This document shows, piece after piece, positions 18,116 to 44,506 of a stretch of DNA of 64,000 nucleotides. Each line of letters begins with the position of its first letter. Position 1 is the first letter of the stretch. Origin of the DNA: Amphiscolops sp. MND2022 (Eukaryota); the NCBI GenBank assembly GCA_964187785.1, contig OZ076409.1:50842001-50906000 (forward strand). The letters run 5' to 3'. A model generated the notes under the pieces. That model searched no databases and was not told the DNA's origin. It saw only the letters and a program-made list of their open reading frames with translations. The position numbers were made by a program, and so were the translations under genes.

Positions 18116-18414
18116 GCAAGTTCCAAGATCTTGCGACTTGCATTAATAACCAATCACAGTGAGTTATTACGATGTTGACTGTTTTACACACTTTTCTCCT
18201 ATTACACCAAGTGATAATTAGTTACACTGAATGACTAAAATTCACTAATTGACTGGTTTACACTATTTCCCGGTCCATAAATTTACACTAATTGACTGAA
18301 TTTCGCACTGATGCAGTACTACGCACTTTGACTAAATTACGCGATTTTCCACTACGCATTTTGACTGAATTACCCCGTCTTACTAATTACGTGGTGTAAA
18401 TTAGTCAAATAGTG

Positions 18415-18942
18415 TAGCACAGTAATGAACTTGACTATTTTACGCGTTTTGTGAGTCATTGGTTTACCTATATTAAAGATGGTTTTATAACCTTTGTTGT
18501 GAAGATTGAAATGCATTAATTTCAGTTCCGAAGATTGATGTTTGAGTTAATGTAAAAAAACATCAATGTTGGTTGATGATTTGTATTGGTGATCTAAGTG
18601 ATTCGAATTTATTCACGAGAATTCAAATCATAAAGTTTATGTTTAAAAATATTGCTTACTGTCATGATCAGTAAGAAATAGGTTCAAATCATAAGGTACC
18701 GTTGAAAATTTTGCTTACTGTCATGATCAGTAAGAAATTAGTTCAAATCATAAGTTACCGTTGAAAATTTTGCTTACAGTCATGATCAGTCAGAAAAAAG
18801 TTCAAATCATAAGGTACCGGTGAAAATTTTGCTTACTGTCATGATCAGTAAGAAATTAATTCAAACAAAGCAGTAAAACGAACTTAAGAGAATTTAGGTT
18901 AATTTTTTCTGAGAAATCATTTTAAATTGGAGAAGATTTGAT
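18415..18942 (+). repeat. ~530-bp subterminal direct repeat, copy 1 (contains ~59-bp tandem units)
   Basis: TAGCACAGTAATGAACTTGACT...GGAGAAGATTTGAT is nearly identical to 43282-43809. Confidence 0.92.
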
Positions 18943-19195
18943 ATTTAATATGATTTGATGGTTTGATGTTGAAGCATGTTTTGTAAGTGTTCCCCAGATT
19001 TGGAATATATTTGAATAACAAAATATTTGAATAACAAATATTGGAAGTTTTGACAACAAGTAGTCATGTTTTGTTTGTTTGACAGTGAGCAAAGTGACGA
19101 GAAACTCTTTGAAGTGAAGTGTCCAAAATGCAGATGGAAAAGCTTCATTCCCAAGAAAAACTGAAACTTCCAGAAATACCCAAATACTTCATTTT

Positions 19196-19395
19196 NNNNN
19201 NNNNNNNNNNNNNNNNNNNNNNNNNNNNNNNNNNNNNNNNNNNNNNNNNNNNNNNNNNNNNNNNNNNNNNNNNNNNNNNNNNNNNNNNNNNNNNNNNNNN
19301 NNNNNNNNNNNNNNNNNNNNNNNNNNNNNNNNNNNNNNNNNNNNNNNNNNNNNNNNNNNNNNNNNNNNNNNNNNNNNNNNNNNNNNNNNNNNNNN
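19196..19395. other. Assembly gap (200 N)
   Basis: Run of N. Confidence 1.
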
Positions 19396-20133
19396 CCCAG
19401 AAGAGTGTGCTTGCTATTTGTTTCTTGTAGGAGATAGCTTTCTAGAGAATAGAGTCATGGTCAGGAAGCAATTAAGTCAAATCATTAAAATACGATCGAG
19501 AAATTTGCTTACTGTCATGATCAGAACTGTTCATTTTAATATATCGTCAGCCAATTAAGTTCCTCCCGCTATATATTTATTCAATTAACGCAATTTGCTG
19601 AGCAGTGCAAGATTATAAGGTACTGAAATCCAATTGACTACAAGGATCGGTGGCATAAACGGTAGCATACAAGGCTGTCGATCTCTAGGACTGGGTTCAT
19701 TTCCCGGTGATGAAATTTTTTTTCATAATTGAAATTTAATTGGAATAAAAAATCAAAATTATACAAGATTACGGAACCAAAAATTGTCTAAATATTGTCA
19801 ATGCATACAGTGGGGGTAGAGGCTTTTCTTCTACAGTGGGGGAAATATCAGCCGGTGAAATTCTGAGAAAAGATCCTCAAGTTAACGTTGAGATCCGTTT
19901 TTCGAGAGAGAAATAAAAGATTTTGGCGAAAAAAAAGAATTAAATTGATCATTTTTTTTCATCATGACACCTTCAAGGGTCACCTTCGTCGTCATGTTTC
20001 TTTTCCAATGATTCTTTTTTTCTTTTCTTTTCACAACACATAATCATCATGATAATGATTATGATGATCAAATAAGCTCTTGATAAATGCAAATATTTCA
20101 AAAAATTCAAACATTTTTTACATTAAATGAACA

Positions 20134-20637
20134 CAGGCATGCGCAAAATACAATTGCCATAATATTTTCATCGAATATAAATAATGGTGTACGGTCCAAC
20201 CTGCCAGTGTGCAATAAATAATGGCCCTGAACCTCTTTCAAAAAATAAATAGTGGACATTATTTCAATTTTTTACCATTAACGGAATGAAAAAGCATGTT
20301 GTTCTCAGTATTTACAGACTAAAAATGTGTCTCTGTAGCGCACCGGGTCACCGTGATATCTTGATTTGTTTAACCAATCAGATTTCAATCAACATATCAG
20401 CGTTTGTGAGGAATTCAAACCACCAGATAACGTATTTCGAGACAACGTTACTGAGAAATAGGCCAGAGAGTAAATATTGGCCAATTCTGAAATAATGGGA
20501 AAGTATAGGAAACTCAGAAAACAATTTATGGCCCTGAAAAATTCTTTAAAAAGAAATAATGGATATGGTTTCGTTATCAGCAATAAAAAGTTTTATGGCC
20601 CTTATTTTTTCCCTACATGATTTTTTGCGCATGCCTG
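20134..20637. mobile_element. Non-autonomous hAT-type MITE
   Basis: 15-bp TIR CAGGCATGCGCAAAA and 8-bp TSD AATGAACA on both sides. Confidence 0.92.
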
Positions 20638-21426
20638 AATGAACAGTAATCACTCAAGGTCAGTTATTGCAGTAATAAAGGAATTTGAATAGGTCTATAG
20701 GCTATCATAACTAGCACTTTGAATTGATTTTCGACAAGCACTTAACTTAATGAAGGAGGAAAACTCAGCCGCGTTTACAGTAACTTGCGAAATTTGAGCC
20801 ATACCGGTCGAGTAAAAAAGTTAATTGCGTTGGTTCTTTTCTGCTTTCTCGGAAATAAATTTGTGAAATCATTAAAATAAAAAGACTTAGAACTGACTGA
20901 ATTAGAAACACTTACTTTTGTATTTATTCTCGGAAATCTTTGCACTTCTTATAGGTTAAGTTCTCATTTAACTTTTATTGAATGACTGGGGTCGTTATTA
21001 CTGCAATCCCTGGCTACAACCAATCTAAGTTTAACTAAAATAGGACGGACAACTAGTTTGGTACACTGTAGCAGCAGTTGTTTGATACACTGTTATTTGA
21101 TACACTGGCAGCCTGTTGTTTGATACACTGGAAAGGATACGACTTGACACTAATTGAGTTCGTAATAAGCCTGACTCCCAGATTGACACACATCAGCTAC
21201 TGGCACCAAGCTTGTACGCGCTGACTCATGATGGCGGCCAGAAAACGATTCCTCTGGGGCTTGAATTCTGGAAATTATAATTTCAGAATGATAATCTTTC
21301 AATAATTCGATGATGATTTTGCTTCTTTCAAAATCAAGAACGATAGCTTCAAAAAAGAAATATGAGTGGTAAGTAACATGACATCTGGTGACCAGATTTG
21401 ACTCAAGTTGAAAGAGTTCCTCAAAT

Positions 21427-24400
21427 TTACTTTGGAATGAATTTTGAAGTAGCCTCAAGATTAAATTTGTACGAATTACCTGTCTCGCGGGGAATGGAGG
21501 TGCATTTCAATATCCCGATTGACTTCATAGTCTCAGCCACGGAAGGGTGCTGGTATGCAACAACTTCAGGTGTTGAGATGTGTTGCTCGTACTGCCGCTC
21601 TGGGGGGGATGCTACTAAGGAGGAAAGCAAAGGGTAAGGGGCGAGAACGATCAGCTCATCATTTGTGAAGGCGCTGTCAGGAATTCTGTCACCATCATCG
21701 TTTCTCGTTGTCCACTTCGCAGGATAGTGAGCTCGGGACAGGTTCAAATAACGGGACAGGTCTGACAGGCAAGCTACAGAGACTTGGTTCTCAAATCTGC
21801 TGAGGGTGAATATCTGATCGTCAAGATATTCTCTGGAGAAACGAGGGTAGAGCTGAAAAATAAAAGATGTCAATACTAAAGATCTTCCTCAAATTGAATA
21901 CTTCAAGTTCTCATTCTGAAAATGTTTAGTCATTCAAAAAACAATGTTCCCGTTACATAATCGAAAACAACTTGTTCGCAACAACTAATCTCACCATTTG
22001 CACTTCCTGTTCATTGTAGATGCTGTCGATTGCCCTATGCATCACACGGAAGTCTCTAATCATCATACAGCCTGAGGACTGTGCAGCTTTGTGGAGCAAT
22101 ATGGCGAACAGCTCAGGAAGACCTGGGAACTTGTCATGCGCTGGAAAGGATGACTCATTCTCAATGGAAGATCGAATCAAATCGGAGTGGCCTTCTGCGA
22201 GAAAATTCGACCCCACAGCGATTGAGTTCCCTTTCGTGAGGACGAAGTGCAGGAATTGTGATGGCATCACAAGTATGTCACCAGGTTTCACAGTGATCAC
22301 TGCACATCCGCCCTCCAAACGTTTATGGCAAGCGAAAAATGTTGGCCTGTAACAAAACAGAAGAACATCAGTTTGTTTTGATATCCATAAACCAGAATGG
22401 TTGATAAATATTGGTTGAGAAATTTGAAAGATCGAAGAAAGCTTTCAAAGGTTCATTGTGCCTCAACTTGAATGTTTTGAATACATCAAAGTTTGAAGAG
22501 GTTTAATGAATTCATTTCATCGTTTTAAACAATATTATTTTTCCAGAACATCATTTATAAATCATTGAATTAACAAAACTTAACCATAAATTAAAAAAAC
22601 TGATTTGATTGATGTTTTTTTTAAAAAAATCGGATTTTAATTGATTCCTGATACTAAAACATTTTGAATACAATGAAATTCAGCAACATTTGGACTATTA
22701 TTAGCTATTAAAATTGGGTCCACTAACTGTGCATCTGTCTCTTGGCTAGTGTATTGATTGAATAGCTCAATATTACTCTGCGTCGGTGCCACTAGGAAAA
22801 AAATCTTCTCGCCCGTAAGTACAGTGTACTTCACGGACGTTGCAGAGAGGTCCTGGTGCCAAGTGGTCTGGCATCCATCGTTCGACACGAGCAGGTAATA
22901 TGAGGTAGCACAAGAGAACGGTTCTGATCTGTCTCCGAGGATCTCATCAACAAAGGGGTTGATGGATGTTTGCTGAATCATCGTCGGGACAGTGTACAAT
23001 TTCTGAAAAAAAAACCATAATTGGGATTAATCTCAAACCGATCATGACAGTAAACAAAATGGGTTGATACCATAATTGGGGTTAATCTCAAATCGATCAT
23101 GACAGTAAACAAAATGTGTTGATATCATAATTGGGATTAATCTCAAACCGATCATGACAGTAAACAAAATGGGTTGATACCATAATTGGGATTAATCTCA
23201 AAGTGATCATGACAGTAAACAAAACACAAAAATTGCACCTTTGGTTTCAATTGAATGTCGATTACATTCAGAGGGTAGAAAGGGCTGCTGGTGTCATCCC
23301 GGAGGAACTCATCCCGCACAGCGTCAAGGGTCAAATCACGTGTCTAAAAGTGAGAAAAAAGAGCAAATCACACCCCTGAATTAAACCATCAATTCAACTT
23401 TCTGTTTGAAATTTGAAATACTTTTTCGAATAGTATTTACTGTTTCGAGAAATTTTGTTTTGAAGTCACTTTGTTGTGAAATGAGCATGAATACTTGATC
23501 AATTTTACCTCTCCAAGTTTTGCTGACTTGACGTTGATGGTATGATCCGGATGCTGGAGATTCTGGGGTTGGAGAAGCTTCACCAGCTGATCGAAAAATG
23601 GCTTTTTGGCTTGAGGCAGTTTAATTTGCCGACAATGATCAACCCCATTCTGCCAAACTATGGGGATACCATTCCTGATCAACTGAGAGACTTTCCTCGC
23701 TTGATCTTTTATGGGACCATTCCATCTCGCAATAGGGAACTCCGGGGAACTTAGCGGTACGTCCAGACAAAATTGGAAGTATGCAGGAGAGCCAAAAACA
23801 TCAGGGGGCGTGGCATGAAAGTCACTTGGAGCGGGACACTCGCTTGATGAGGGGGAATCGGATAGGTCATCAACCTGTATAAGTAGAAAACGACACTTTA
23901 TGACACATAACAGCGGAATACGGGACAGTGAAAAAACGAACGAGCTGGGAAATTGAAGCCAAAATTATGTACTGTTGAAGTCTCCTGCATGTGAGCATGC
24001 TAATTATTCAATTCCCCAGAAGTATTTAAAACCTCCCACTTTAAAAAAAGAAATATATGCCTTCTACATCATAATGATTACGAATTAAAATTAAATTGAG
24101 TCAAGTTGATATTCAGTATTGGGGATGATTTTGGGTAATAACTGATCTTATGAGTCAATGATATAATGATTTAGTACCTTACTAATGATTTAGTGCCTTG
24201 CATAACTCACTTGTGTCTTGCAGCTCGGATGTTTGGAGATGTGGATTTGCAGGTCGTATGAATACGAAAACGTCTTGCCACATCCATAGCACTTGTGACT
24301 TTGGCGTCTCCCTCCGCGTGCTGCCTCTGTAAATTACAATCATATTTTGCACCGTGACGTTGAATCATGGATTAACAGATTTGATCTGATGTTCAAAGCT

Positions 24401-25108
24401 TAGATACAATTGTTTACTGGCGCGATAGGATCAAAGTAGCGATTTGATCTGATGTTAAAAGTTTAGATAATTTTGTTTATTGGTATGATCGGATCAAATT
24501 AGCGATTTGATTTGATGTTAAAAGTTTAGATAATTTTGTTTACTGGCATGATCGGATCAAATTAGCGATTTGATCTGATGTTCAAAGTTTAGATAATTTT
24601 GTTTACTGGCATGATCAGATCAAATTAGCGATTTGATCTTATGTTCAAAGTTTAGATAAATTTGTTTACTGGCATGATCAGATCAAAATAGCGAATTGAT
24701 CTGATGTTCAAAAGGTAAATAAATTTGTTTACTGGTATGAACAAATCACTTACTGTACTTGTACATGGTGATCGCTTCTCCTTTTCTTTTCAAGTCACGC
24801 TGCTTCACACAGTATTTGGTCAACTGATGCTTCTTCATGAACTTGGCCTGCATCAGTACCTGTCCACACTGCTCGCAAGTTCGCTGCCTGAGCTTCCACT
24901 CCTCTCTTGACTCATGGAGGCAGGTGGACTTCTGGTGGCGCGTGACGTTGCTTTTCACTTTGGACGAGTAGTCACAAGTTCCTTGTCCGCAGTGAAAAAG
25001 CTTGCTCGACGGAGAATATCGAGGTGTGGGTGCTGCCGGGGTAGAATCGGAACCCTGAGGGGATGCTGCTGAGGTAGAAGTGGCGAGAGCACTTTCACTT
25101 GGAAACAT
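21427..25108 (-). CDS. Spliced C2H2 zinc-finger (x3) + JmjC histone demethylase-like gene (KDM7/PHF8/KDM2 type), element A
   Basis: Phase-compatible GT-AG exons: 25108-24754 (two fingers), 24326-24211 (third finger CYGCGKTFSYSYDLQIHISKH), 23874-23509, 23343-23239, ~23002-22728 (WHQDLSATSV..GEKIFFLVAPT), ~22346-21996 (PGDILVMPSQFLHFVLT..GSNF), ~21852 onward. H-x-D...H iron triad is intact. The 3' end is uncertain and may continue to 21150 by frameshift. Confidence 0.88.
23006..23225. repeat. Intronic 55-bp tandem repeat x4 carrying the element A motif
   Basis: CATAATTGGGATTAATCTCAAACCGATCATGACAGTAAACAAAA repeated every 55 bp. Confidence 0.9.
24375..24740. repeat. Intronic ~63-bp tandem repeat x6 carrying the element A motif
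   Basis: GATTTGATCTGATGTTCAAAGTTTAGATAATTTTGTTTACTGGCATGATC units. Confidence 0.9.
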
Positions 25109-25189
25109 GAAAACTAAAAAATGGGATCATGAAGGTTTTCTCAAAATATTCTTAGGAAGAAATTGAAAAAGCTGAAAGACTATAGAAAA

Positions 25190-25625
25190 ACATGAAAAGG
25201 TCTGAGTGATCATGCCAAAACCATGAAAAGGCATGAGTCACCCTGTCAAAAACATGGAAAAGTCTGAGTGACCATGTCAAAAACAAGAATTGGTCTGATT
25301 GACAAGGTCAAAAACATAGGAGGGTCTGAGTGACCATGTCATAAACAAGAATAGGTCTGAGTGACCATGTCAAAACTTGAATAGGTCTGAGTGACCATGT
25401 CAAAACTTGAATAGGTCTGAGTGACCATGTCAAAAACATGAATATGTCTGAGTGACCAATTGAAAAACATGAAAAGGTCTGAGTGACCATGTCAAAAACA
25501 TGAAAAGATTTGACTGACAATGTCAAAAACATGAAAAGGTCTGAGTGACCAATTCAAAAACATGAAAAGGTCTGAGTGACCAATTCAAAAACATGAAAAG
25601 CCTTGGGGTCTGAGTGACCATGTCA
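25190..25625. repeat. ~30-33-bp minisatellite (GGTCTGAGTGACCATGTCAAAA)
   Basis: More than ten units. The same unit occurs inverted at 33515-33910, 37113-37388 and 37828-37870. Confidence 0.9.
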
Positions 25626-27447
25626 TGAAACAACATGAAAACACACGATGAACTAAATTTAAACTGAAACACTTTGATTCCTAGTGATTTTTTCTTTTGC
25701 ATGGCTTCGATAGCCAGACATTGTCTTATAATTAACATTTGACAATAGAGCGACGTGGACATTAATGTTTTTGTTGAAATTGAGGCTGCAGGATTTGTCA
25801 ACGTTGAACTTCAATGAAACGACCCAAGCTGTCCCGTCAGCAACTTTGTCCCATTCGTGTCCTAGAACAGTGTCCCACACAGCTGTTGAGTACTGTCCTT
25901 CTTCTTTCAAACTGTAAGTGACTGAACCTCCTCCAGCAGGAATACCAAATGCATGAATCAAAACGGAGCAGCTTGGAGCAATGTCTTTCTTGAAGTCCCT
26001 AATTCTAGATTGATCGCTATGAAAATGCATCAGCAAGTGCTTCAGGTTAGAGTACGCCCAGTATACTTTCGCATAATTATTGTCAAAAGGAACATCTGGG
26101 GTACTATGAAGTGGCAAAGTCCGATCTTTCTTCATGTAAGAAAGAGGTACCGTTGATTTGAAGAAAGGGTCATCTTCTTTCTCAACTTCGATGAATAGTC
26201 TCGAGTCTTCGATGAAAATCCCGAACACCCTCCACGAGAACTCAGTGCCCACCACGTTTACGATGTCTCATTTAACTGCAACCCCATTTTTGATTGGGAC
26301 GGAAACAAGCTCTACACGACCTTCAGGTTTCGTTAGGAAAGGTTCGGCTAGTCCTCCAGAAAGCACCTTCGCTAATTTCGGTTTCTTTCTAGAAGGCAGT
26401 TCAGTTCGGATGTTGCAATCGTCTTCTGTATCTTCTTCTGTTTCTTCTCGAAGCGTCACTCTCTTTTTCTTGTGAGATTCTTCATGCTTTCCCGGTCGTA
26501 GTTGAAAGTAAGAAATTGTCGTAGTCTTGGGGTCTGAGTGACCATGTCATGAAACAACATGAAAACACACGATGAACTAAATTTAAACTGAAACACTTTG
26601 ATTCCTAGTGATTTTTTCTTTTGCATGGCTTCGATAGCCAGACATTGTCTTATAATTAACATTTGACAATAGAGCGACGTGGACATTAATGTTTTTGCTG
26701 AAATTGAGGCTGCAGGATTTGTCAACGTTGAACTTCAATGAAACGACCCAAGCTGTCCCATCAGCAACTTTGTCCCATTCGTGTCCTAGAACAGTGTCCC
26801 ACACAGCTGTTGAGTACTGTCCTTCTTCTTTCAAACTGTAAGTGACTGAACCTCCTCCAGCAGGAATACCAAATGCATGAATCAAAACGGAGCAGCTTGG
26901 AGCAATGTCTTTCTTGAAGTCCCTAATTCTAGATTGATCGCTATGAAAATGCATCAGCAAGTGCTTCAGGTTAGAGTACGCCCAGTATACTTTCGCATAA
27001 TTATTGTCAAAAGGAACATCTGGGGTACTATGAAGTGGCAAAGTCCGATCTTTCTTCATGTAAGAAAGAGGTACCGTTGATTTGAAGAAAGGGTCATCTT
27101 CTTTCTCAACTTCGATGAATAGTCTCGAGTCTTCGATGAAAATCCCGAACACCCTCCACGAGAACTCAGTGCCCACCACGTTTACGATGTCTCATTTAAC
27201 TGCAACCCCATTTTTGATTGGGACGGAAACAAGCTCTACACGACCTTCAGGTTTCGTTAGGAAAGGTTCGGCTAGTCCTCCAGAAAGCACCTTCGCTAAT
27301 TTCGGTTTCTTTCTAGAAGGCAGTTCAGTTCGGATGTTGCAATCGTCGTCTGTATCTTCTTCTGTTTCTTCTCGAAGCGTCACTCTCTTTTTCTTGTGAG
27401 ATTCTTCATGCTTTCCCGGTCGTAGTTGAAAGTAAGAAATTGTCGTA
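25602..27447. repeat. 924-bp-period tandem duplication of the 3' part of the unknown cargo gene
   Basis: ORFs 25659-26255 and 26583-27179 are offset by 924 bp and differ by one residue. Confidence 0.95.
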
Positions 27448-27851
27448 AGATCAATTCCATCTAGCTGGTCGTCAAAAAATTTCCCGTCTTCAATTGGGAC
27501 GACTACAGGTGACACAAGCATCTGTTTTCTAAAGGGATCATTTTTCATGACATATCCCTCTTTCACGTTCCTCGTCAGTACTCCATCTCGTTCCATTGAT
27601 TCCGTGTAATGAATCGGATCATTTCTGACTCGCTTTTCTTTGAAGTAGCCAAGAACTTCAAGACTGAGGACCAACTCAATTCGCCTGCTGTAACTTGCGG
27701 CTGTGCCCTCGTTTTCTCTGATAGGCCATTTTTCAGGAAATTCGTGGAAGCGTGGTGGCGCTTCTACAATTCCGTTAGCGTACTTGCTTGAGTAGTTCAG
27801 CCATTGTACGGTGGCCTGAAAAAAAGCCATCATGGTCATGGTCATGATCAC
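26583..27851 (-). pseudogene. Unknown cargo gene of element A (~420 codons, one in-frame TGA at 27192-27194); homologue of 48327-49640
   Basis: ORFs 27192-27851 and 26583-27179 are in the same frame. Shared blocks with the B gene: NDPF, VP..NG....I....G.EF, D..LG..WD. True start may be further upstream or spliced. Confidence 0.78.
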
Positions 27852-28419
27852 CTGAATCTATTTGAATATAATTGGAAAATGGATATTGGTGGGAGTTTCC
27901 CAAAGTGTAAGGCTTCATTTATTGCTAGTTTTATGAACAAAAAAATGCTCCGCTCCCATTTTTTGTTTTCCCGGCGATTTTCACACACAAAAACTATCAC
28001 GGGATTGAGAAATGTATCATGATACATGTATCAAGATATCATTTTGAAGTTTATAAATTTAAAACATCTTGAAGCTTGAAGCTCATACTAATACAGTTTA
28101 CAGTGTTTTTAGGAAAAAACTATACCGCCAGAATCATATTGTTTGGGAAATTTTTCCGTCAAAATTTTTCTGGAATCAAAAATTTGTAAGTGGGTCAAAA
28201 AATGAAAAAAAAACTAAAGAATGATGTTTTGGAAATTGCTCTCGACCAATGAAATGAGCGCGTGAGGCATTGATCAGCAAAGGATATTTGTTTGTTTGGT
28301 TTCCTTCCGCATGAAATGTTGCTTCTTCCAGAATCACTACTGTTTAGTCACGAAACGTGAAAAATGAAAAAAAAATTCTGAAAAACTTCGGTAGTGGAAA
28401 AAACAGAAATGAGCAAAAA

Positions 28420-28487
28420 CACTCGCCCGGAATCGAACCCACACACAAGATATGAGAATAAAGGCAATTAACCACTGAGCTACCGAT
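28420..28487 (-). repeat. tRNA-derived (SINE-like) remnant
   Basis: Minus strand TAGCTCAGTGGTTAA (A box) ... GGTTCGATTCC (B box); no convincing cloverleaf. Confidence 0.5.
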
Positions 28488-29170
28488 GTTGCTCATGCAG
28501 CCATCAACAGCACATATAAATTACTGTGATTAGGAAATCGTCCCCTATGCGCTAAGCGTCGTTATCAACCAATTAGAATGATTAGGTACCACAAAAAATA
28601 AGAGCAAAAAACATAAAAACTAACTTTTGAAAAATTAGTTTCAAATAACATAAAAATGAACCCGAACACCTGGCTAAGAAATCAAATTCACGAAATTTTA
28701 TTTGTAATTTTCATACTTTTTTCAGTGAATCTTTTGAATTGTGAATGCTTTTGACAACTAAAACTTTCTCGTAAACTATTTTACTTTTATGTTTAGTAAA
28801 ACTCATTTCATTTTTATGTTATTTGAAACTAATTTTGTTTTTGTTATTTGCTCTATGTTCAACTAAGCTATTTGGGAATTCACCAATTAGAATGTGTATT
28901 TTCTCTCACTTTCAATTCTGATTGGCGCATCAAGTGAAATCTCTGGCGCAGAAAGGACACTTCTGGTATTTTCCCAGTTTTTCAAATTCAGCTAATTGTA
29001 ACTTTCTCAATTTTTGTACCAGAAAAATTTAAAAAAACACTTAGGCAAACTAGATGAAACTCCAAGAAACTTTTGTTTCTTATGTTTTTCAAAATTCTAG
29101 ACAACTTCGAAAAAATCGAGCTTAAAATCGCCCCGAGTGCCTTTTTCTTAATCACAGTACTGTATTTAGG

Positions 29171-29326
29171 AGAAATTTGATTTGATCATGCCAGTAAACA
29201 AAATTTTCATACATACGATTCTTATTTTGCCGGAAGATAGCAGTATCATATTGCTATCTTCAGCAGGAAAAATATGAATCGTATGTATAAAAAATTTGTT
29301 TACTGGCATGATCAAATCAAATTTCT
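29171..29326. repeat. ~156-bp hairpin with an inverted pair of element A motifs
   Basis: AGAAATTTGATTTGATCATGCCAGTAAACAAA...TTTGTTTACTGGCATGATCAAATCAAATTTCT. Confidence 0.9.
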
Positions 29327-30156
29327 GATTTGGTTATCCCTAACCAATATTTTTGCGGACCCTTGATTAGTTTTATCAGATATTCAGAATAACAAAATAA
29401 CTTACTTTATGCGTCCCGATGAACTCCGTAATGTACGCTGAACGCCAAAGGCCGCATTCTTCTTCAAAGCATTGGAGTAGTTTTCCACAGTTGAAGTTTT
29501 TTGAGAATTGCATTGTTGAATGGATGGACTTGGTATCGAGTTGAATTTATCAAGATTAGGAGTAGTTTAAATAAGTCTGGCAGGCAAATGTGTGAGTAAA
29601 AAGGCCAAAATCCAATGCATAGGTGTGATTTTGGTACTTGACTGGTTTGAGTTGATTTAATCTACTAACACCTAAATTTGAGGGTTATCCTTTAAGGCAA
29701 GAGTTTATTAGAGGTTATCCGTTAGTTAAATTATATAGGTGTCAATTTTGTTGGTAGTGAAAAGAGTTTATCACCTCTTGACATGAGGTAATCGCTTAAT
29801 TGCCTTTTTTTCTGGGTGTGTAACAAAATTTTCTGAAGATCAGTTCTTTACCTTTCTTGCTTCATATTGCTCGCTTCTAAACTTGACTCTACAACTCCAT
29901 CGAATTCTCAATTGTCAAATAATACCACATCTCAATTTCACTTCAAATTCAAATAGATTAGTTAACAAATTTCAAACATCACTTCTGCTCATCTTAATTT
30001 TGCTTTCAAAGATTTGAGCTTTCAAAAAATTTCAAATAATTTGAAGTTAACAAAATACCATTCAATTTTAGTAAGTTTTACAGTTGTCACTCTACTGTAA
30101 CTTTTCTTTAACGTTTCTTTCCTTTACGTTCATAATTTTCATTTGTTTCTTCAATC

Positions 30157-33100: not shown

Positions 33101-33464
33101 AAACGGAAAGAACGCTATTTTATTCATCGCAAAGAGAGACATAGACGCGTTGGAAGAAATATGCTTCGATTACAAAGACCCAAAATGCAAAGGCGAATTT
33201 TGTTCGAGACCTACTGCTGTTACTGTGTCATCCGACCCACCAACCTCTGACCCACCAACCTCTGATCCGCCAACCTCTGATCCGCCAACCTCTGACCCGC
33301 CAACCTCTGACCCGCCAACCTTTGACCCTTCATCTAATACGCCATCCTCTGAGTCTGTATCCGACTCACCGACCGTTGCGCACGTCCTATTATCTGAGTC
33401 CCAAGAAACCTTCCCACCATTGTGCAACGACTCTACCATTTTTGACGATTCGCCAATTTATTAA
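30157..33464 (+). pseudogene. Spliced SET-domain methyltransferase-like gene (SETD8/PR-Set7-like), element A; disrupted
   Basis: Exon 30157-30454 (donor GTAAAG), broken middle exon(s) ~30987-32032, last exon from 32357. SET motifs SGRGVVAT..VVCDYH, FDAT, GRLLNY, LFIAKRDI..EEICFDY. Frameshift near 32930. (DPPTS)n tail. Confidence 0.82.
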
Positions 33465-33514
33465 ATTTCAGATCTACTAGGTCTTGTGGCAAACTTCTTT
33501 TTTGAAATCATTTG

Positions 33515-33910
33515 GTCACTCATCATTTAAATCACTCAGACCTACACTTTTTTGACAGGGTCACTCAGACCTACTAGGTAGTACAAAGTCTTTTTTTGAC
33601 ATGGTCACGCAGACCTACAAATTTCTTTTTTGACGTGGTCACCCCAACCTATAAATATATTTTTTTGAAATGGTCACTCAGCACTACAAATTTCTTTTTT
33701 GACATTGTCACGCAGACATACTCTTTTTTGACAGGGTCACTCAGACCTACTAGGTAGTACTAGGTAGTACAAAGTCCGTTTTTGACATGGTCACTTAGAC
33801 CTACAAATTTCTTTTTTGACATGGTCACTCCAACCTACAAATGTATTTTTTTGAAATATCATATACTCAGCACTACAAATCTCTTTTTTGACATTGTCAC
33901 TTTTTTGACA
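33515..33910. repeat. Minisatellite (TTTTGACATGGTCACTCAGACC) upstream of the transposase
   Basis: Reverse complement of the 25190-25625 unit. Confidence 0.88.
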
Positions 33911-33947
33911 TGACGTTTCATCCCAACGTTTTAAATTTTAGTTTGAC

Positions 33948-36900
33948 ATGTTCAAGCAAAACCCACCATCTCTGACGGGAAATCAAATTATGTGAAGCTT
34001 GTCTTCCTGAACATTCTCTTTCCAACGATGTTCCCCCTACATCCCGAGAAGAAAAATGGTCTCGAAAAAAATGGCCCACGAAAGATCAAAACATACATCG
34101 AGAAACATTTCAACGGGTCAAAAGTCCAGATCAATGATGTCTATAAGCCTAACGGGATCAAGTCCGAACGATCTGCTGCACTGCGAGAAGATATATTTGA
34201 CCTCATGATGATATCTGCCCCACCGTGCACACTTCCTTGGTCTCCCGAAAGACTACAATATTTGAGACATTTCTATCCAACTTTGCCCCTTGCTTGTATA
34301 GACGCACAAGAATTGAAGACTGTTGATGTATCGATCCTGAACGCACCTGATGCCCCAGCCGACTTATCGACAAACTTATCAATTCAATCAACTTGCCGTG
34401 ACATGGTTCCAAACACATCAAATGCTCTGACAAACGATGACATATCAATCGAGTATCGCCAGTTCAGGCTTGCTTTTGAGAAGTCGGAGAAGTCACAGTT
34501 CTGGTCTAATTCATTTAAACTTTTGACAGAGTCAGCCGACTTCCTGAATCAGTTCGCTTTGAGTTTGAGAGACTATCTCTACAAACAAAAAGATGTTTCA
34601 AAAAGAAAGAATACCATTGTCTGTCGACTCCTCGGAAAGCTACTTCAAAATTTTTTCAGTAAAGATAGAGACGAAACACAAATCGATATCCAATGCCTCC
34701 TTATGTTGAACAATCCTCAGGACCTTCTCGTGAAGATACGCCAGTTACTCAAGTGCCCATTCGTGAAAGCGACGATATTGCCATCACGACTCGAACTTTC
34801 AATCATCAATAGACGGATGAATGATTTATTCAGAACTATGCTTGAACCATCGAGAACGCATACCGACTTCCGTGTAAACCTTGTGAACTTTGTGAAGTTT
34901 GTTGCCCTTCATGTCTATGGAAAGAATTCCATCTCGGGATTGCGAATCGACGTTTATGGTGATGCAATGTCATGAGGCAAACGAGATGTCGTGAGAATGG
35001 CCTTCCGCATCTTAGATACTGGAATCGAAACTGAACAATCTTCGACGCATGTTTTCACTTTCGCAGTTTTCGACGTAAGTTTTGGCTTATGTGTTTTCCA
35101 ATTTTGCTTTCTGATTTGATCTTCAATGTGAATATATTTCTTAGAATTTTGCATACTGACGTCATCCTCCATGTGGTTTATGTTTTGTTTTCACTTTACT
35201 TACTGGCATGATCTTCCAAAAATTTTATGTTTCTTCAATTTTGCTCACTGGCATGATCTTCCATGTGGTGTATGTTTTCACAGGGGAAAGATGTACGAGT
35301 CAATTTAGAGTATAACCTGACAATGGCGAACGTATTAGAACACAATAGGTGGTTATACAATGAAACCAAAGCATTGCATGAAGAAGGAGCCATTTTGAGT
35401 TGTTCGGGTGATTCGCCTTTCCAGCTGAGATTACTGAAAGGAGTCAGTAGTGACGTTTCATGCCTTTCGAAAATGTGCCTGTATGTTCCTGATCCTCCCA
35501 TTTTGTCGCAAATTGTCCCAAAGCAGCAAGCGAAAAAGAACAGTGAAGCACACAAGAAGGAGAAAGAAGGGATGGGTGCGATTCTTCCTTCCACGGTTGA
35601 TCATTTCACTGGGAGACGAACTGTGCTGACTATTGATATCAACGAACAAATTCCAAACGAATCGCTTATGTTTTTGAAGTCCACATTCAACACGTGCCCT
35701 GATGTTCTTCACATGATTGTTCGATCTGTCGGAAGTGATCTGAAGCTACACGTCGATTCACTGATCCTATCTAATATGCTTGCGATATCGAAATTAGAAT
35801 GTAATATTACACAAAGAAATGTAAAGCCGCCTCGTTTCAGTTTTGAAATAGTTGATAAGCTTTGTAAGGCTGTTTCTTTGAGCTTTCGAGACGCTGAAGT
35901 CATCATCTCGGACTGTACACGGACGAGCGAATATGGAAGAATGGATATTCCTATATTCGAAGGTGTATATTCATTCGAAGAGGCACATGTTTACAAGGCT
36001 GATCAGGCGAATGAAAATACACCATATAATGTACTGATATCCTTGGTGGACGGTTTAGAAACATCGTTTCCGAAAGGCATTGGTAATTCACAACGGAAAT
36101 TGGCCAATCTGCAATTTCAATCGCTGTACCAACTGCTGGAGCTATTGCGACAACGGGAGTTGACTGATCTCCAAAGTTGTAAAGACCTTTACGAGACATA
36201 TTATCAAAGTACCATATGTTTATTTGGGGATCGTGCCTTGACTCCGTACAAACTGAAGATCGACATGCTGCTGAGGATATTCGAAAAGGGAGAGATTTTA
36301 GCCCCATTTAATAACATGACCGAAGGCACAGAAAAGAGTCACCATACAGCCAGCAAAGATTACAATTCGAGAACGATGCGCGACGGCGGTAACGATGCTT
36401 GGAATATGTCGTCAAATTATCTTGACATACGATTTTCATTCTTTCGAGCCATTGATGTGTCGTCGTCAAAGTCGAAGTTGCTTCAACAGTGCCCCGACCA
36501 AATAGCCAAGACGTATCTACAGATTTGCCAAGAGTCGATTGATGTGCCCTCTCTTGACATCGGAAGGACGAGCGATATTTTCAGATGCATGAACTTTGTT
36601 GTTCTCGGAACATATGGGCATTTGAAAGAAACTCAAGGAAGCTTGGAGAGGAAGATTTTGGAAAACGCTGGCATCGTTCTGAGCAATACAGACATCATTA
36701 ATCGAAGCAAGTTGAGTTTCCTAAGCCACCATTACTGTGTTCTCCCGAAAAGCAAGTTCATAGATACTTTGGTAAAAAACACGCCCGGCACGAACGAGAC
36801 ACTTGTTACCAAAGCGGTGTATCATACCACACTGGGCAATTGGATTTACTTGAAGGCAGAATTCATTACTGAATGTGTGAAGAGAAACATGTTGATGGAT

Positions 36901-37095
36901 CCCAAAGATTACACTTTTGAACTGGATGCCACAGCAAGGGCTAAATTGAGAAAAATACGTTTCCAGAACATCGCGCCGCAATTACAAAGACAATCACAAC
37001 CTCTCAGGACTGGGTCGATAACATACCATACCGCAATCAGGAAGTATAAAACCGCCCAGAAAGCATTGAAAAGGAAATTCAATAGCGTCGAATAA
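33948..37095 (+). pseudogene. RAG1/Transib/Chapaev-like DDE transposase fused to a C-terminal BRCT domain (~980 aa), element A
   Basis: D1 in IDVYGDA (34961), D2 in SCSGDSPF (35410), PDVLH (35710), LTPYKLK, E in MTEGTEKSH (36331), then BRCT-like FRCMNFVVLG...LERKILENAG...LKAEFITECVKRNMLMDPKDY. Phase-0 intron 35075-35283. In-frame TGA at 34973 and a 1-nt deletion just after ATG 33948. Confidence 0.82.
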
Positions 37096-37112
37096 TGATA
37101 CCACCACTTCCA

Positions 37113-37388
37113 CATTGTCACTCAGATCCCCTTTTGATTTTGACATGGTCACTCAGACCTACAATTTTTTTGACATGGTCACTCGGACCTACATATTTCT
37201 TTTTTGAAATGGTCACTCAGACCTACATATATCTTTTTTAACATGGTCACTAAGACCTACAAATTTCTTTTTTGACATGGTCACTCAGACCTAGAAATAT
37301 CTTTTTGACATGGTCACTCAGACCTACAATTTGTTTGACATGGTCACTCAGACATTCAAATTTCTTTTTTGACATGGTCACTCAGACC
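37113..37388. repeat. Minisatellite downstream of the transposase (same unit as 33515-33910)
   Basis: TTTTGACATGGTCACTCAGACCTAC units; the array resumes at 37828 after the MITE. Confidence 0.88.
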
Positions 37389-37827
37389 CAGGGCTGTTCA
37401 CAATTAAAATGCAATCATTTTTTGAGTCTACAATTTCATTTATATTTTTAACATTGCCAACAATTATAATTGCAATTATTGTTACATTTTTTCCTATATA
37501 AAACAATATATGTAAAACATTTGAAATTAAAAGAAAAACAGAAAGTCCCGGTTGAGTGCCTAGAAAATTTGACTTTCAAGATGGTGTGGTAGCCTGGATT
37601 TTCTGAAAAATGTCCTTTTCCAGACTTGAAATTTCCTCTCCGTTCTGATACTTTCTCAGCGCTGTTTCAAAAACCGGTGAATGAATTACACAGTGACGCA
37701 GGAACAAAATGTTCCATTTATTTACATGCGACAATTTTTATTGCATTTTTTTCAAATGGTCACATTTTCTAGTACCAGTAGAAAAATGACAATTATTCTT
37801 ATGACAATTCATTTTTGAACAGCCCTG
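37389..37827. mobile_element. Non-autonomous hAT-type MITE inserted in the minisatellite
   Basis: 12-bp TIR CAGGGCTGTTCA and 8-bp TSD CTCAGACC. A related left end occurs at 40484-40630. Confidence 0.92.
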
Positions 37828-37907
37828 CTCAGACCTACAAGTTTCTTTTTTACATGGTCACCTTTTGACATGACGTTTCATCCAAACATTTTTTATTTCA
37901 GTTTGAC

Positions 37908-38047
37908 ATGTTCAAGCAAAAACCCACAATATCTGACGGGAAAGCAAATTATGTGAAACTTGTGTTCTTGAACATTCTATTTCCAACGATGTTCCCCCTA
38001 CATCCCGAGAAGATAAATGGCCTCGAGAAAAATGGCCCACGAAAGAT
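37908..38047 (+). pseudogene. Truncated paralogous 5' end of the element A transposase
   Basis: Reads MFKQKPTISDGKANYVKLVFLNILFPTMFPLHPEKINGLEKNGPRK and matches 33948-34086. Confidence 0.88.
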
Positions 38048-39246
38048 ATATGCAAAAATCCATGAACTCATATGGTAGGATCGATGGAATAATTACACTC
38101 AAGTTTTGTTTACTGGAATGATCAGACAAGTATAATTTTGTTTACTGGCATGATCAGAAGACAACAATTATGGTAATTTTGGGACCATGTCAACTATTTT
38201 CCACCAGGTACACCTTGCAGGATTCTGTCATTTATTTTATTGGATCAAAATTTCAACGCAAACGATGTCGACATAATGGTATTTGAACCTTTTGTCTTAC
38301 TACCCCCGCCGTTTTTTGAGGGAAAATGACATGGTCCTAATTTTGTGTACTGGCATGATCATAATATACAAAAACCAAAAATGAAAAACAACAAAATGAT
38401 TACGTACCAAATAGCATAAGAGCAAATAACAGAAACAAAATTAGTTTCAAATAACATAAAATTGAAATTAGTTTCAAATAACAAAAAACCAAAAACCCGG
38501 TTAAACAATCGACATCAGAAAATTTCGTCTGTATTTGCCTCACAGAATCTTTTGTATTGTGAATTTTTTTGACCACTAAAACTTTCTCGTAAACAATTTT
38601 ATTTTTGTTAAGTGAAACTCATCATAAAAATAAAACTGTTTATGAGAATTTTTTTGTTTATATAGAAGTTTAGAAAATTGAAATTAGTTTCAAATGACAT
38701 ACAAATGAAATGACTTCATTTTTATGTCATTTGAAACTAATTTCAACTTTGTTATTTGCCAAATGCTCTTGTGTTATATGGGAATTCACCAACAAAAACT
38801 CAAAAATCAAACCTGTCTTCCTTTTTGGTTGTGCTTTGGATAAAACTGATCGTCGGTCTGGATAAATTGCAGTTCAGCAACGAAAAACTCAATTGGGCTC
38901 TGAATCAAATTGGATTCAAAAAGTTACGGATTTTATTGAAGCTAACAATTACAGTGTAATTACAGTGAATCAAAACAAGGTGCAAATTGGAAACGTCGAA
39001 CACGCACTTGCGGTATTGAACTGGAATTTGATTGGCTAATTTTATGCATTTTTAGTCACGTGACTGCGTGTAAACTGTTTTCGACGCTTTAAATATTCTA
39101 CGATTTGAATCGTCCTCGCAAAACGGTTACCATAGCAACAAGGTAAACAAATTAAGCGAGCTTGAATAACGTGTAAACTGTTTTCGACGCATTAATATTC
39201 TACGTTTTGAACCGTCCTCGCAAACGGTTACCATAGCAACAAACTA

Positions 39247-39770
39247 AACAAGACGGGAACGTCCCAAGTCGGCGCCATATCTTAGGCTCAAAAATATTCA
39301 AGGAACAACTATTGGAAAAATTTGGAAAAAAAAATTTTTCAAAAAAAAAATTTTGATTTTTTTTCGAAAAAAGTATTTTTTAGGTCGCACAATGCCGAAA
39401 AACTCAAAAAGAGGCCATTCAGGCTCATTCAACGTTTTCTACAAACCGAAAACTTCAAAAAAAATCAAGGGGGTACCCTTTGATAAATTTCGAAAGTTTT
39501 CGAAAAAAGTCACATAGTGCCGAAAAAAAACCCAAAGGGGGGACCCTTTGGTCTTACCTGTACTTTTGGAAGCATTAAAAAATTTATGGTTTAGTGCGGG
39601 ATTCGAACCCACGCTCTCCGGCTGGGTCGAAGATAGAAGATGAACAAATATGAAAGATGAACAAAAATTGTAAGAAAAGTGGACCACTCAGAGTGAGATT
39701 GTCAACTGAAAAAAAAAAACTACTCACTGTAAGAGTCGGGCTTTTTTCCTTAAGGGAAAAGGCGCCGACT
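39247..39770. mobile_element. Short non-autonomous insertion, Helentron/HINE-like
   Basis: Interrupts a local tandem repeat at AACAAG. Asymmetric subterminal inverted repeat AGTCGGCGCC (39267) / GGCGCCGACT (39761). Internal B-box-like GGATTCGAACC. Confidence 0.55.
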
Positions 39771-42664
39771 AACAAGTTAAGCGAGCTTGAATAACGTGTA
39801 GCTTTCGCGATGTAGCCAATACGGTCCATTCAGTAAACAGAAACCACTGCATGCAGAAATCAAAATTAGACTCTAATTTCAGAAGGTGAATTCCCAAATA
39901 ACATGAGAGCAAATAACATAAAAACAAAATTAGTTTCGAATAACATTAATATGAAATTGGTTTCTCTTATGTTATGAAGTTTGCTCTTATGTTGGATCTT
40001 CTCTGTTAATTCCCCCAGTGTTTTGATAAAGTTAAGCGGTTAAGAGAAGTTATTTTTGATTTGATAATAACAACCAATCAAATTGCAGTATTTCTAACTC
40101 TTACTGTAACTGAAACTTATCCCTCATAATCATTACCATGATGGTGGGGAATTAAAATTTCTGCGCTTGCTGCAGGGGGGGGGTTGTAATTATTAGAAAA
40201 GATCCCTTAAGTAATTTGGGAATCCACCAAAAAATCTTATTTCGTCATCTCAGATTAGCTTCGCATAACAATTTGAAGTTCGACGTTAAAGTTGCATTTT
40301 TAAACAGATTGTTAATTTGGCGAATTGTGGCTTTTGATTAACTCCCAAAGTAAGTCAACTACCTTCACGAGAGAAAACAACTAACAAGCCAGATGAAAGA
40401 AATGTTTTACTTTTGTTAACTGCCATGATTTGATTACTGGTATGATCTGCGAATAAAATCAGATTCAAATTAAGCATCACAAACAGGGCTGTTCACAATT
40501 AAAATGCGATCATTTTTTGATTCAACATTTTTCTTTACATTTTTTAACATTGTCAACAATTATAATAGCATTTATTGTTACATTTTTTTATACAAACAAT
40601 ATGTAAAACCTTTGAAATTAAAAGAAACAGTCACTTCTTTGACTGTTTGTATAACCCTCAATAATTTTAACGAAACTTCCTGAAAAGGTTTTTCTACACG
40701 ACTAGTAACTAAATCCGAATATTTAATAACATAATAAATTATATTGGCCGAAAACACAAATACATTGGATCAAAAAATAAATAAATTGCATCGTACAAAA
40801 CCACAAATAACTATATTTTCTTTATTTATTGTCAATATATTTAAATACAATATATTTTTTTACATCCCTGATCGTAATGGGCCCAAAATGTTTTCTTTTG
40901 ACTCTAATTCATTCAATAATCACTGATTGCTAATTCAGTATATATTTTTCAAAAGATTCGAATAGATTTTCAAAAGTATTTATATGTGTTCAATGCCTCA
41001 GCATAATGGGGATGGTGGCACAGTTGATAATTCCCTTGGGTATTTGAAGCTAAACGTGTTTAATAGTACCTCCGGATCGATCCCCGCCAACAACCCACTG
41101 GCTAGGCGATTCTATGCAGACAACCCTCATGAAGACTCCCTTCATATCAAAAGACATCGTTGTTGTTCCTCTTAACGACGATAGGAAGAGCCCATATCGA
41201 AGGATCACTGCGCCACTGCATCCCTTTTAATGTCCAATTTTTGATCTTACTAAATCTCGGATAAATTCAGATAAAAATGAATGGGTGAATTCCACATGAA
41301 ATGAATTCATATGGAATGAACTTTTTAAACCTAAATTCAATAAATGAAATTAAATTCAAGTTATATGAATTTTGTTCACTGGCATGGTCAGGTTTTGTCA
41401 TTGTGAAAATTCACATTCAAATGATGAATGAATGAACTTTGATTACTGGTATGATCAGATTCAAGTTGAATTCAGATGAATAAATGAGTTTATTCGCAGA
41501 TCTTTTCAGTAATCAAATCTAATCTTGCCAGTTATTCAAAATGAACTTCATTTTGAATTCAAATCACTTAGAATTCGATACAAACCAGCATTCAATACTG
41601 ATGTTATGTTGATGCTCAATACTGGCATTAACTAAAACATCAAGCATTGAAGTGAACTTTTGTTTGCAACATTGTATCAACACACGCGTGTCAATACATG
41701 TAAAATATTTTGTTGCCAGGTTTAACGAGTTGCGTAAATTCAATCTGATTTTACAGTGATCAAAAATCATTTATTCGCGCTCAACAATCAACAACTGATT
41801 CATCTTTTTTTCACATCAAAACGGGATGCAGTGGATCTTCAATTGTGCCTTCGTATCGCTGTGATAACAACAATCAACAACTGATTCATAATTTTTTCAA
41901 ATCAAAAAGGGATGGATTTTCAATTGTGCCTTCCTATTGCTGTGAAAGGGAATACCAACGATCAGCAACGGATTTTTTTTCATATCAAAAAGGTATGCAG
42001 TAGGGCAGTTAACTGGACCTTCAATTATACCTTCCAAATATGCCTTCTGATCGCTGTGAAGTGGTAATACAGAGTGGTCTGTATAGAGTCGCCGAGGAGT
42101 GTGTATGTGAAGGGATCGATCCGGCGGTAGACAACGGTGCTAGCTTCACTTCATACACAAGGAAAATATCAACTGCGCCACCATCCCCTACATGCCGTTG
42201 CATTGCAAACAAATATAAACTCACACAAACTTATCATTCGTTTCTCTGACTGTATTGCATAACTAACTGTATTGTGTAACTAACATACTGATATTTTTCA
42301 TGACTCCTAAATTCAATTACCAAGTTGTTAATTTGTAATTTGTCCTAACGTTGAATTGATTTTATTGATGATGACTTACATGATGTTTCTAATGATTTGT
42401 TATACATTTAAGAATTTTTTTGTTAAGAATAATTTATTATTCTGAATAACGCCTATGCATGATACAAAATAATTTAAATTTTTGAAATCAAAAACTTGAA
42501 TTGTATAATGTTTTGTAATTGAATTGTATAATTTTTCAAACAGTTCTAAGTAACGATTGCATTTTAAACAGCTTTACAATTACGCTTGTATTATTACAAT
42601 GCTTCACTCCAATGCGTTAATATTTCAGTAATCTCAGAAATCCAAACCATAAGGTTTATGTTTC

Positions 42665-42741
42665 AAAATTTTGCTTACTGTCATGATCAGTTTGATTAAT
42701 TATGATTTAATCAAACTGATCATGACAGTAAGCAAAATTTT
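42665..42741. repeat. 77-bp hairpin with an inverted pair of element A motifs
   Basis: AAAATTTTGCTTACTGTCATGATCAGTTTGATTAA...TTAATCAAACTGATCATGACAGTAAGCAAAATTTT. Confidence 0.92.
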
Positions 42742-43281
42742 TACGCACTAGAAGTTTTGTCAAAGTCAGTTTCGTAGGTGAAAGGAAAGTGGCGCTGCTT
42801 GTCGTTCACTTGTGGGTATATGTGGTGTATATATGCATATAATTAGTATCACTGTAGCTATTCTAAAATTTGGTTTAGCCTTTTAGCTTCAAATAACATA
42901 AAAATGAAATTACTTTCATTTAACATGAAAACTGATAACCCGGTGAAAAAAATGAACTCACGAAATTGTATTTGTAAATTCGTGACCACTTTCTCTTCAA
43001 CAATTTTTGTTTTGTGAAACTTTTCTATCAACTTTGTCGGGCACAAATTACTGCTGAGATTACAAATCTCAACGAAAAATAACTTTTGCCCAGTATAATT
43101 TAGTTTTAAAGAGGCTCTCAGTTAAGGGATCACATAGTGTCGCCCATAACAAGACCCACGCCGAGAACGTGGCCTCTGAAGGGTCTCAAAGATTGTAAAT
43201 ACAACTAAGTAACAATACTTCAACACTGTGCACTGTGGTGTGTTGGAAAATGAACACATGTTTAGTTCATGTTTAAACATC

Positions 43282-43809
43282 TAGCACAGTAATGAACTTG
43301 ACTATTTTACGCGTTTTGTGAGTCATTGGTTTACCTATATTAAAGATGGTGTTATAACCTTTGTTGTGAAGATTGAAATGCATTAATTTCACTTCCGAAG
43401 ATTGATGTTTGAGTTAATGTAAAAAAACATCAATATTGGATGATGATTTGTATTGGTGATCTAAGTGATTCGAATTTATTCACGAGAATTCAAATCATAA
43501 AATTTATGTTTAAAAATATTGCTTACTGTCATGATCAGTAAGAAATAGGTTCAAATCATAAGTTACCGTTGAAAATTTTGCTTACTGTCATGATCAGTAA
43601 GAAATTAGTTCAAATCATAAGTTACCGTTGAAAATTTTGCTTACTGTCATGATCAGTAAGAAATTAGTTCAAATCATAAGTTACCGTTGAAAATTTTTCT
43701 TACTGTCATGATCAGTGAGCAATTAATTCAAACAAAGCAGTAAAACGAACTTAAGAGAATTTTGGTTAATTTTTTCTGAGAAATTATGTTAAGTTGGAGA
43801 AGATTTGAT
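43282..43809 (+). repeat. ~530-bp subterminal direct repeat, copy 2
   Basis: Near-identical to 18415-18942. Confidence 0.92.
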
Positions 43810-44506
43810 GTTTATTGATTTTTTTCACTTGCTAGATGTTTCCGTTATTCCGTTTTGATTCAATGATGACTAGTATTGGATTATGAGTGATTTGAATTCA
43901 ATCACGAATTCAAATCATAAAGTTTCTATTTAAAAGTTTTGCTTACTGGCATGATCAGTGAGCAATTAGTTAAAATCATTAAACTCTAAATTGACTTAAT
44001 TAGTTAGTCACACTAAATGATTAGAATTCTTTTGCATGCATGTGTCATCCATCGTAAACTTTGGTGTATGTATGTATGTGTTAATGTACGTATGCGTTAA
44101 TTGTTTAATCGCGTAATTCAGTCAAAGTTAATGCGTAATTTAGTCAAAGTAATTAAACTCCAAGCAACTATCCAATGTAAATTTATGTGTTTGAAGCAAC
44201 TATTATATTGCCGTAAACTAGTCAAATTTTGACTACTTTACACTTTTCGGTAGTTTAGTAAATGAATACCTCATTAAAAGTGGAATTTAATCAAACTTTG
44301 ACTGAATTACACCTTACTAAATTAGCTTGTAAATTTTGACTGTTTTACACTATTTACTAACTACGCATTTTGACTGGAATTCACCGCGTTCATATTACAC
44401 TGTGCTGCACCACTACACGAGTGGATTACTACAGTCTTTGATCAATTTACAGTAATTGACTATTTTACCCAAAATACTATTTACACCAAGTGATCACTTT
44501 CCACGT

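Follow-up and report, generated by a model that had tools for sequence, protein, structure and literature searches.

Introduction

Among the described systems that come close to the locus reported here, the first is that of the VANDAL transposons of Arabidopsis and their VANC proteins, in which short family-specific motifs are packed into non-coding tandem repeats, introns included (PMC5735166; PMC10398659). The Spm/CACTA elements with their TnpA protein resemble the present families in having termini of the broad CMCT clade and family-specific clustered motifs, and TnpA activates cognate copies in a sequence-specific manner, a logic to which the one proposed here can be likened (10.64898/2026.08.24.746577). 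However, TnpA is transposase-derived, binds the termini only and recruits host DNA demethylases (10.64898/2026.08.24.746577), whereas most of the sites described here are internal and the enzyme borne by the element is histone demethylase-like. The Arabidopsis protein REF6/JMJ12 is likewise a JmjC demethylase whose own zinc fingers direct it to a DNA motif (PMC6497721; PMC7105484; PMC12264921). REF6 is encoded by the host, has four fingers and acts at host loci (PMC6497721; PMC7105484), whereas here three N-terminal C2HC fingers stand before a KDM2/7-like JmjC domain on a transposon, and the proposed target is the transposon itself. Mobile DNA that bears epigenetic writers or erasers as cargo is known as well, namely fungal TET/JBP transposons and oomycete SET transposons (PMC12730594) and giant-virus insertions of Amoebidium with KDM4-like bare JmjC domains (PMC11244446); the available parts of these sources describe no DNA-reading module with a co-evolving self-address for these enzymes (PMC12730594; PMC11244446). 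Our literature search found no transposon-encoded finger-JmjC system; Repbase Reports lay outside its reach, and the families may be catalogued there.

In this work, we analysed a 64-kb stretch of DNA (the window) from Amphiscolops sp. MND2022. It contains a transposon, element A, for which an initial annotation had drawn the analogy with VANDAL. The logic of that analogy, a family motif in non-coding repeats, was borne out, but the element is not a VANDAL. Nine families were compared (A, B, C, D, E, F, G, J and K; the sequences of J and K are partial). As in the VANDAL/VANC system, the motif of the A-type families is family-specific, dense in non-coding DNA and rare in sister families; it accumulates in tandem repeats, introns included; and the motif and an element-encoded protein appear to diverge together. 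VANDAL elements belong to Mutator, whereas here the transposase is RAG1/Transib-like by language-model features and the target site duplication (TSD) measures 2 bp. Unlike VANC, the candidate reader consists of three fingers fused to JmjC, with a specificity that can be read from the sequence. The most probable reading is a VANDAL-like system of anti-silencing, self-targeted and based on a fusion of reader and eraser.

Results

Element A is a 26.4-kb DNA transposon bearing inverted repeats at its termini (TIR; 18093..44528), ends of the form 5'-CATTAC..GTAATG-3' and a 2-bp TSD (TT). It is inserted in a Gypsy-like integrase remnant, and both of its ends align with another full copy. A 2-bp TSD was seen in all six complete short copies and in 8 of the 12 long copies with both flanks seen, the other four having unmatched flanks. 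The termini and the TSD match the definition of the CMCT clade, which has 5'-CA..TG-3' termini and a TSD of 2-5 bp (PMC12730594). The DDE transposase gene (33942..37095, plus strand) has a stop in its first exon in this copy, and its product is RAG1/Transib-like by language-model features, the transposase of a relative reaching 0.93 to RAG1 clusters in Atlas features. The residues D, D and E can be seen in the transposase consensus, where the C(2)C and H(3-4)H zinc motifs of the CMCT clade are not apparent, so that we name no superfamily; the C-terminus has a weak BRCT match. A PDB profile search with the transposase gave no match, and a MULE match to it was lacking in Pfam. The Mutator (MuDR) superfamily, and VANDAL with it, is ruled out by the 2-bp TSD, the CA..TG ends, the RAG1-nearest transposase features and the missing MULE match.

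The three-finger JmjC gene (21430..25107, minus strand) has about seven exons, with limits set by eye and an uncertain start codon. Its C2HC fingers lie at 24920..24991 (finger 1), 24809..24877 (finger 2) and, about 30 amino acids past finger 2, at 24220..24291 (finger 3), all on the minus strand. The best PDB hits of the JmjC exon were PHF8 (E 1.4e-7), KDM2A (E 3.5e-7) and KDM7A. Its H-x-D..H and K residues are intact; H-x-D..K was matched in A, B, D, G and J, and the distal H is kept in all nine families and in a further family, H. The PHD or CXXC targeting domain of KDM2/KDM7 is absent from the JmjC protein of A, which has C2H2-type finger matches instead. Judged by similarity and by its intact Fe(II)/2-oxoglutarate residues, the JmjC domain of A is KDM2/KDM7-like and putatively catalytic. 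The SET gene (30157..33464, plus strand) encodes a SETD8/KMT5A-like domain and has a frameshift near 32930 in this copy, whereas copy C3 is in frame; when the copy of family E was tested, its SET domain was nearest to SETD8. ORF-X (25662..27820, minus strand), conserved in all nine families, has an internal duplication and a stop in this copy. ORF-X and other ORFs gave no match in Pfam or Atlas. Between sister families, dN/dS was about 0.06-0.2 for JmjC, fingers and SET, with synonymous sites saturated between A and B; by these ratios the cargo is under purifying selection.

The motif TTACTG[G/T]CATGATC is present in 24 exact copies in the window, spanning 18656-43956, against a mean of 0.00 in shuffled sequences (n=100). 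With up to two mismatches there were 34 matches, where 1.0 was expected by chance, 33 of them in 18093-44528 and one, with two mismatches, at 48184. The 14-mer exists as described, but the conserved unit is longer, since a T-run ending in TTTG lies just upstream of it.

Our scans confirmed the sites in the subterminal regions, the JmjC, SET and transposase introns, the spacers and two hairpins, as well as the repeat units of 55, 59 and 63 bp. A left subterminal array (18646..18865, plus strand; mismatch scan and tandem-unit check) holds four sites in 59-bp units, and a right one, with 59-bp units at 43513-43732, holds four more, followed by a site at 43943 (43513..43956 together, plus strand). 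A lone site was found by exact scan at 19509..19522 (plus strand). Within the JmjC gene, four sites occupy an array of 55-bp units in an intron (23014..23224, minus strand; exact scan and tandem-unit check), and five, with up to two mismatches, occupy an array (24378..24742, plus strand) of 63-bp units (24378-24740) in the intron between fingers 2 and 3. Both hairpins, one at 29171..29326 and a perfect 35-bp one at 42665..42741, carry the motif in each arm (exact scan and hairpin check). Two sites lie in the SET intron (32130..32305, plus strand) and two in the transposase intron (35200..35258, plus strand); the matching introns of family B hold that family's own motif, with three sites in the transposase intron. 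Six dispersed spacer sites with unrelated flanks lie at 38110, 38142, 38347, 40434, 41376 and 41443 (range 38110..41456, plus strand). The core is kept among single sites whose flanks cannot be aligned, and the same places are occupied in two other A copies. With a longer seed, none of 37 sites in element A overlapped coding sequence, which makes up 36% of the element, in accordance with the claim that exons are free of the motif; counted as 12 clusters, the avoidance has P ~0.005, with exon limits set by eye. More than 2 kb from both ends lay 25 of the 37 sites.

A genome-wide scan, which had been proposed with the initial annotation, returned 667 matches of the A motif in 1.07 Gb against 11 for a reversed control. 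Among 16 isolated matches sampled on contig 1, 13 lay in A-derived short copies, instead of in an unrelated small repeat, and three were unrelated to A. The motif is also carried by a 61-bp satellite, at least 91 units long, that arose inside an A left end; the most variable positions of this satellite fall inside the core. Outside full elements the motif is therefore present both in this satellite and in A-derived short copies. The genome has about 200 A left ends, of which we took 20 by their TIR, eight picked as lacking a nearby exact motif and 12 from contig 2. Six of these 20 belonged to complete short copies with a 2-bp TSD, four without the motif and two with four sites; among the remaining 14, three had a motif site. 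Apart from the copy itself, the junction of one motif-free short copy had a single match, at 81%.

The transposases of the nine families are 32-85% identical; among 72 scored matches there were about ten transposase copies of A (89-100%) and at least 60 of B (71-72%). Homology of the three-finger JmjC gene and of ORF-X was found in 9/9 families, and the SET gene was seen in all nine, for K in a deletion derivative. A supposed family I, considered as a candidate lacking the finger-JmjC gene, turned out to be family J, in which this gene lies further upstream. Family H, known from partial sequence, has a JmjC gene with one different finger. Loci M, N, O and P are degraded variants of C or G and were excluded from all counts. 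Family B has no A sites and 24 sites of its own (up to three mismatches) of TCCCTGTCGTGAGC, in register with the A motif, also in the SET and transposase introns that match those of A. The B motif has 2302 matches genome-wide versus 1, and the G motif 171 versus 0, clustered at G copies. Outside the closely related D/J/K and E/F, cross counts of the motifs were zero except for two A sites, which lie nested in an E copy, and one G-like site in J. The motif is thus family-specific, as first described, and with 13 of the 16 isolated matches in A-derived sequence, neither equal abundance throughout the genome nor membership of an unrelated small repeat, which the initial annotation had named as refuting, came about. 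In the nine families pooled, 5 of 185 motif sites fell in coding DNA, and 124 of 185 lay over 2 kb away from the ends of the analysed sequence, which is partial for J and K. A second dispersed motif, of GTGGA type, occurs in families C to J and is subterminal-heavy in C; the top motif of H is a palindrome of this second class.

The published C2H2 code assigns G to R/K/H, A to N/Q and C to D/E (PMC12264921), and with this code alone we scanned all offsets on both strands. Finger 1 peaked at motif positions 11-13 of the top strand with 25.4/26 contacts (next register 0.56), and finger 3 at positions 7-6-5 of the bottom strand with 11.5/13 (next register 0.60). When fingers were shuffled among the nine families, ignoring relatedness, the peak was reached in 9/2000 cases for finger 1 and 0/2000 for finger 3; with seven families (F and K omitted) these values were 49/2000 and 5/2000. 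In the same scan finger 2 had no significant register (shuffles 201/2000), and it is probably a spacer or a backbone binder. For finger 1, helix residues -1/3/6 and the triplet at 11-13 were VNR-GAT in A, KNR-GAG in B and E, RNR-GAG in C, F, G and J, and RHR-GGG in D and K. For finger 3 and the bottom-strand triplet 7-6-5 they were YDI-MCA in A, YDV-ACA in B, RSR-GTG in C, YSN-ATT in D and K, SNR-GAG in E and F, HSR-GTT in G, and YVN-ATT in J.

Over 36 non-independent pairs of families, triplet distance followed finger-residue distance with rho 0.91 (partial 0.79) and transposase distance with rho 0.53 (partial 0.05). On the transposase tree we counted, by eye, about five separate joint changes of finger and motif. 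In finger 1, a change of N to H accompanies one of A to G on the D+K stem, and in family A one of K to V accompanies one of G to T; in finger 3, a change of S to N accompanies one of T to A on the stem of E+F, families A and B combine D with C, and at position 6 R versus N is paired with G versus A. One contact is discordant, H at -1 of finger 3 in G facing T, and Y or S at this position face differing bases. The T-run and motif positions 1-4, which are conserved, are explained by no finger.

Motifs were also predicted from the fingers. In family C, predicted from A, B and D, GAG held; placing finger 3 on the top strand failed, and the bottom-strand rule was then set post hoc. Of five further families predicted before looking, four (E, F, G and J) had both triplets, at the right spacing, in a top-ranked dispersed motif, each family having more than one such motif from which the analysed one was chosen; the finger-1 end served to align E, F and G, and F is a close kin of E. 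In the J motif the left half is D-like and the right half carries GAG, matching the prediction from the J fingers. In K one triplet held, that of finger 3; the finger-1 half failed, because an extra finger upstream had been read as finger 1, and the true finger 1 of K fits post hoc. A universal TTTG prefix had also been predicted and was absent in E, F and G, which is why the strict pattern for E gave 0 matches. The finger-1 half of these predictions has little power, because 6/9 finger-1 helices predict GAG. Overall, motif and fingers diverge in step between families, and the motif looks like a functional, family-specific address. The proposal that the zinc fingers read the motif gains strong support from these comparisons, with nine family motifs in register and two triplets that track fingers 1 and 3.

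Discussion

We consider that the whole is best explained by self-targeted, VANDAL-like anti-silencing by the finger-JmjC protein, to which we give a probability of roughly 0.6. The motif would be the site to which the three-finger JmjC protein of the same element binds, with finger 1 reading positions 11-13 on the top strand, finger 3, set off by a long linker, reading the bottom strand at positions 7-6-5, and finger 2 spanning the variable three bases between the two triplets. Yeast Fzf1 is a partial precedent for a finger that reads the other strand (PMC12852955). Tandem duplication and local inversion would have multiplied the sites to dozens, in introns, subterminal arrays and spacers, and these would load the KDM2/7-like demethylase along the whole element. 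The docked JmjC domain would then remove a repressive histone methyl mark, and copies of the same family, and only those, would remain expressible. From the sequence comparisons, binding of the motif by the finger protein seems very likely; if the fingers do bind, anti-silencing is the likely outcome. The CpG observed/expected ratio was 0.86-0.94, and CpG transitions (60/2756) were 1.5 times as frequent as other C/G transitions (203/13775). With a ratio of about 0.9 and so slight an excess, histone silencing is a likelier target than DNA methylation.

The alternative that survives best, which we hold to be rather unlikely, is that the finger-JmjC protein binds the motif without lifting silencing. 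It would either damp the expression of the element itself or enter an H4K20/H3K36 cycle with the SET8-like enzyme, by which copies would be prepared for replication-timed excision and repair. All the evidence for binding of the motif by the fingers fits equally well here; the JmjC exon matches KDM2A (E 3.5e-7) nearly as well as PHF8 (E 1.4e-7), and all the full families examined have a SETD8-like writer alongside JmjC. The mark removed by KDM2-type enzymes, H3K36me2, is an active one, which leaves either direction of effect possible; PHF8 and SET8 have one mark in common, H4K20me1. However, the sites cover internal genes as well as the ends, and private, fast-diverging motifs in non-coding tandem repeats are the anti-silencing signature of VANDAL and Spm (PMC5735166; 10.64898/2026.08.24.746577).

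We regard as improbable that the motif is bound by the transposase, by ORF-X or by the N-terminal part of the SET protein, the finger match being coincidence and shared descent. Transposases and proteins of the TnpA type can activate cognate copies in a sequence-specific way (10.64898/2026.08.24.746577), subterminal arrays are present, many short derivatives retain a site, and ORF-X is found in all nine families without a known fold. But the triplets track finger residues after transposase distance is removed, and not vice versa; most sites are far from the ends; and the GTGGA-type second motif of families C to J is a better candidate for these proteins. Moreover, four of the six complete short A copies with an intact TSD are without the motif, though they may not have moved in that form. 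Binding by the transposase, which the initial annotation had named as the alternative, is therefore weakened. That the motif arose neutrally, by gene conversion and tandem duplication within the element, or is the core of an unrelated small repeat, is very improbable and already largely refuted: many sites do lie in tandem arrays, an array-derived satellite is most variable inside the core and 3 of 16 isolated matches are unrelated to A, but the core persists where flanks cannot be aligned, each family's own version sits in introns that match between A and B, and the motif avoids exons and changes with the finger residues.

Returning to self-targeted anti-silencing by the finger-JmjC protein, we lean slightly towards a clade-wide, self-addressed kit, consisting of a finger reader-demethylase fusion and a SET writer, in which families would re-code fingers and sites in step and so keep private channels. 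The logic of KRAB-ZFP and PRDM9 would be mirrored here, with the transposon holding the fingers. In plants, sequence-specific anti-silencing by transposons is established and the VANC recognition code is unpredictable; here the predicted finger contacts are readable, the reader is joined to the eraser and nine families coexist. Since the fingers can be read and nine families are at hand, the joint change of protein specificity and dispersed-site specificity is directly testable. The families also offer natural, mutually orthogonal targeting modules with an unusual, predicted two-strand binding mode. If this reading is true, one genome would house many families side by side, on private channels of anti-silencing that are readable from sequence alone.

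Structure of element A and its surroundings

In the subterminal regions of transposon A, a direct rather than inverted repeat of about 500 bp is common to the left (window 18415-18947) and right (43282-43814) sides. Because this repeat is direct, the motif arrays at both ends of the element have the same orientation. The copy in the window also carries changes of its own. An ORF-X block of about 920 bp is duplicated at about 25600-27450, a duplication absent from the two other A copies compared, and an insertion at 39252-39771 is likewise missing in those copies. The 5' part of the transposase occurs a second time at 37828-38047.

Element A has, in addition, a second A-specific repeat that is distinct from the finger-type motif, the proposed target of the zinc fingers of its JmjC protein. 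It forms arrays of 31-34-bp units in one place upstream of the JmjC gene and at others flanking the transposase on both sides (25186-25630, 33532-33901 and 37112-37390), and it was not found in families B, C and D when these were compared with A.

About 270 bp beyond the right end of A lies a decayed element of the related family C, on the minus strand at about 44795-64000. Within it, a 230-bp repeat at 53964-54537 holds the finger-type motif of family C itself, and a 22-bp array at 44992-45115 holds the second-class (GTGGA-type) palindrome of that family.

Elsewhere in the genome, a 61-bp satellite (stretch L044, positions 4439-10000; contig G000:C2 near 2.05 Mb) arose from a subterminal unit of A. 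Variation within the satellite is greatest at motif positions 2 and 7, and a code-type contact is predicted at neither of them.

Related families, their fingers and motifs

Gene order and orientation vary between the families. In family B, the JmjC gene is located downstream of the transposase, and the SET gene region contains a copy of the B left terminal sequence (region of stretch L015). Derivatives without transposase, with ends and TSD intact, were observed in families K (8.3 kb, L083-L084) and G (5.5 kb, L120-L121), and both still contain the exons for the fingers and a portion of the JmjC gene.

In family K (L085-L088), a separate stretch that resembles an exon carries an additional C2HC finger, some 480 bp upstream of finger 2. 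The JmjC gene of family H (L091-L092) encodes one differing finger and a degenerate second finger, and the dominant dispersed motif of this family is a second-class palindrome. A further dispersed motif, with no relation to the finger-type or second-class motifs, was seen in family J (L079-L082), in about 15 flanks unrelated to one another.

In all families, motif positions 8-10, which lie under finger 2, are mostly C-R-T or C-R-G, and therefore a CpG alternates there with its deaminated form.
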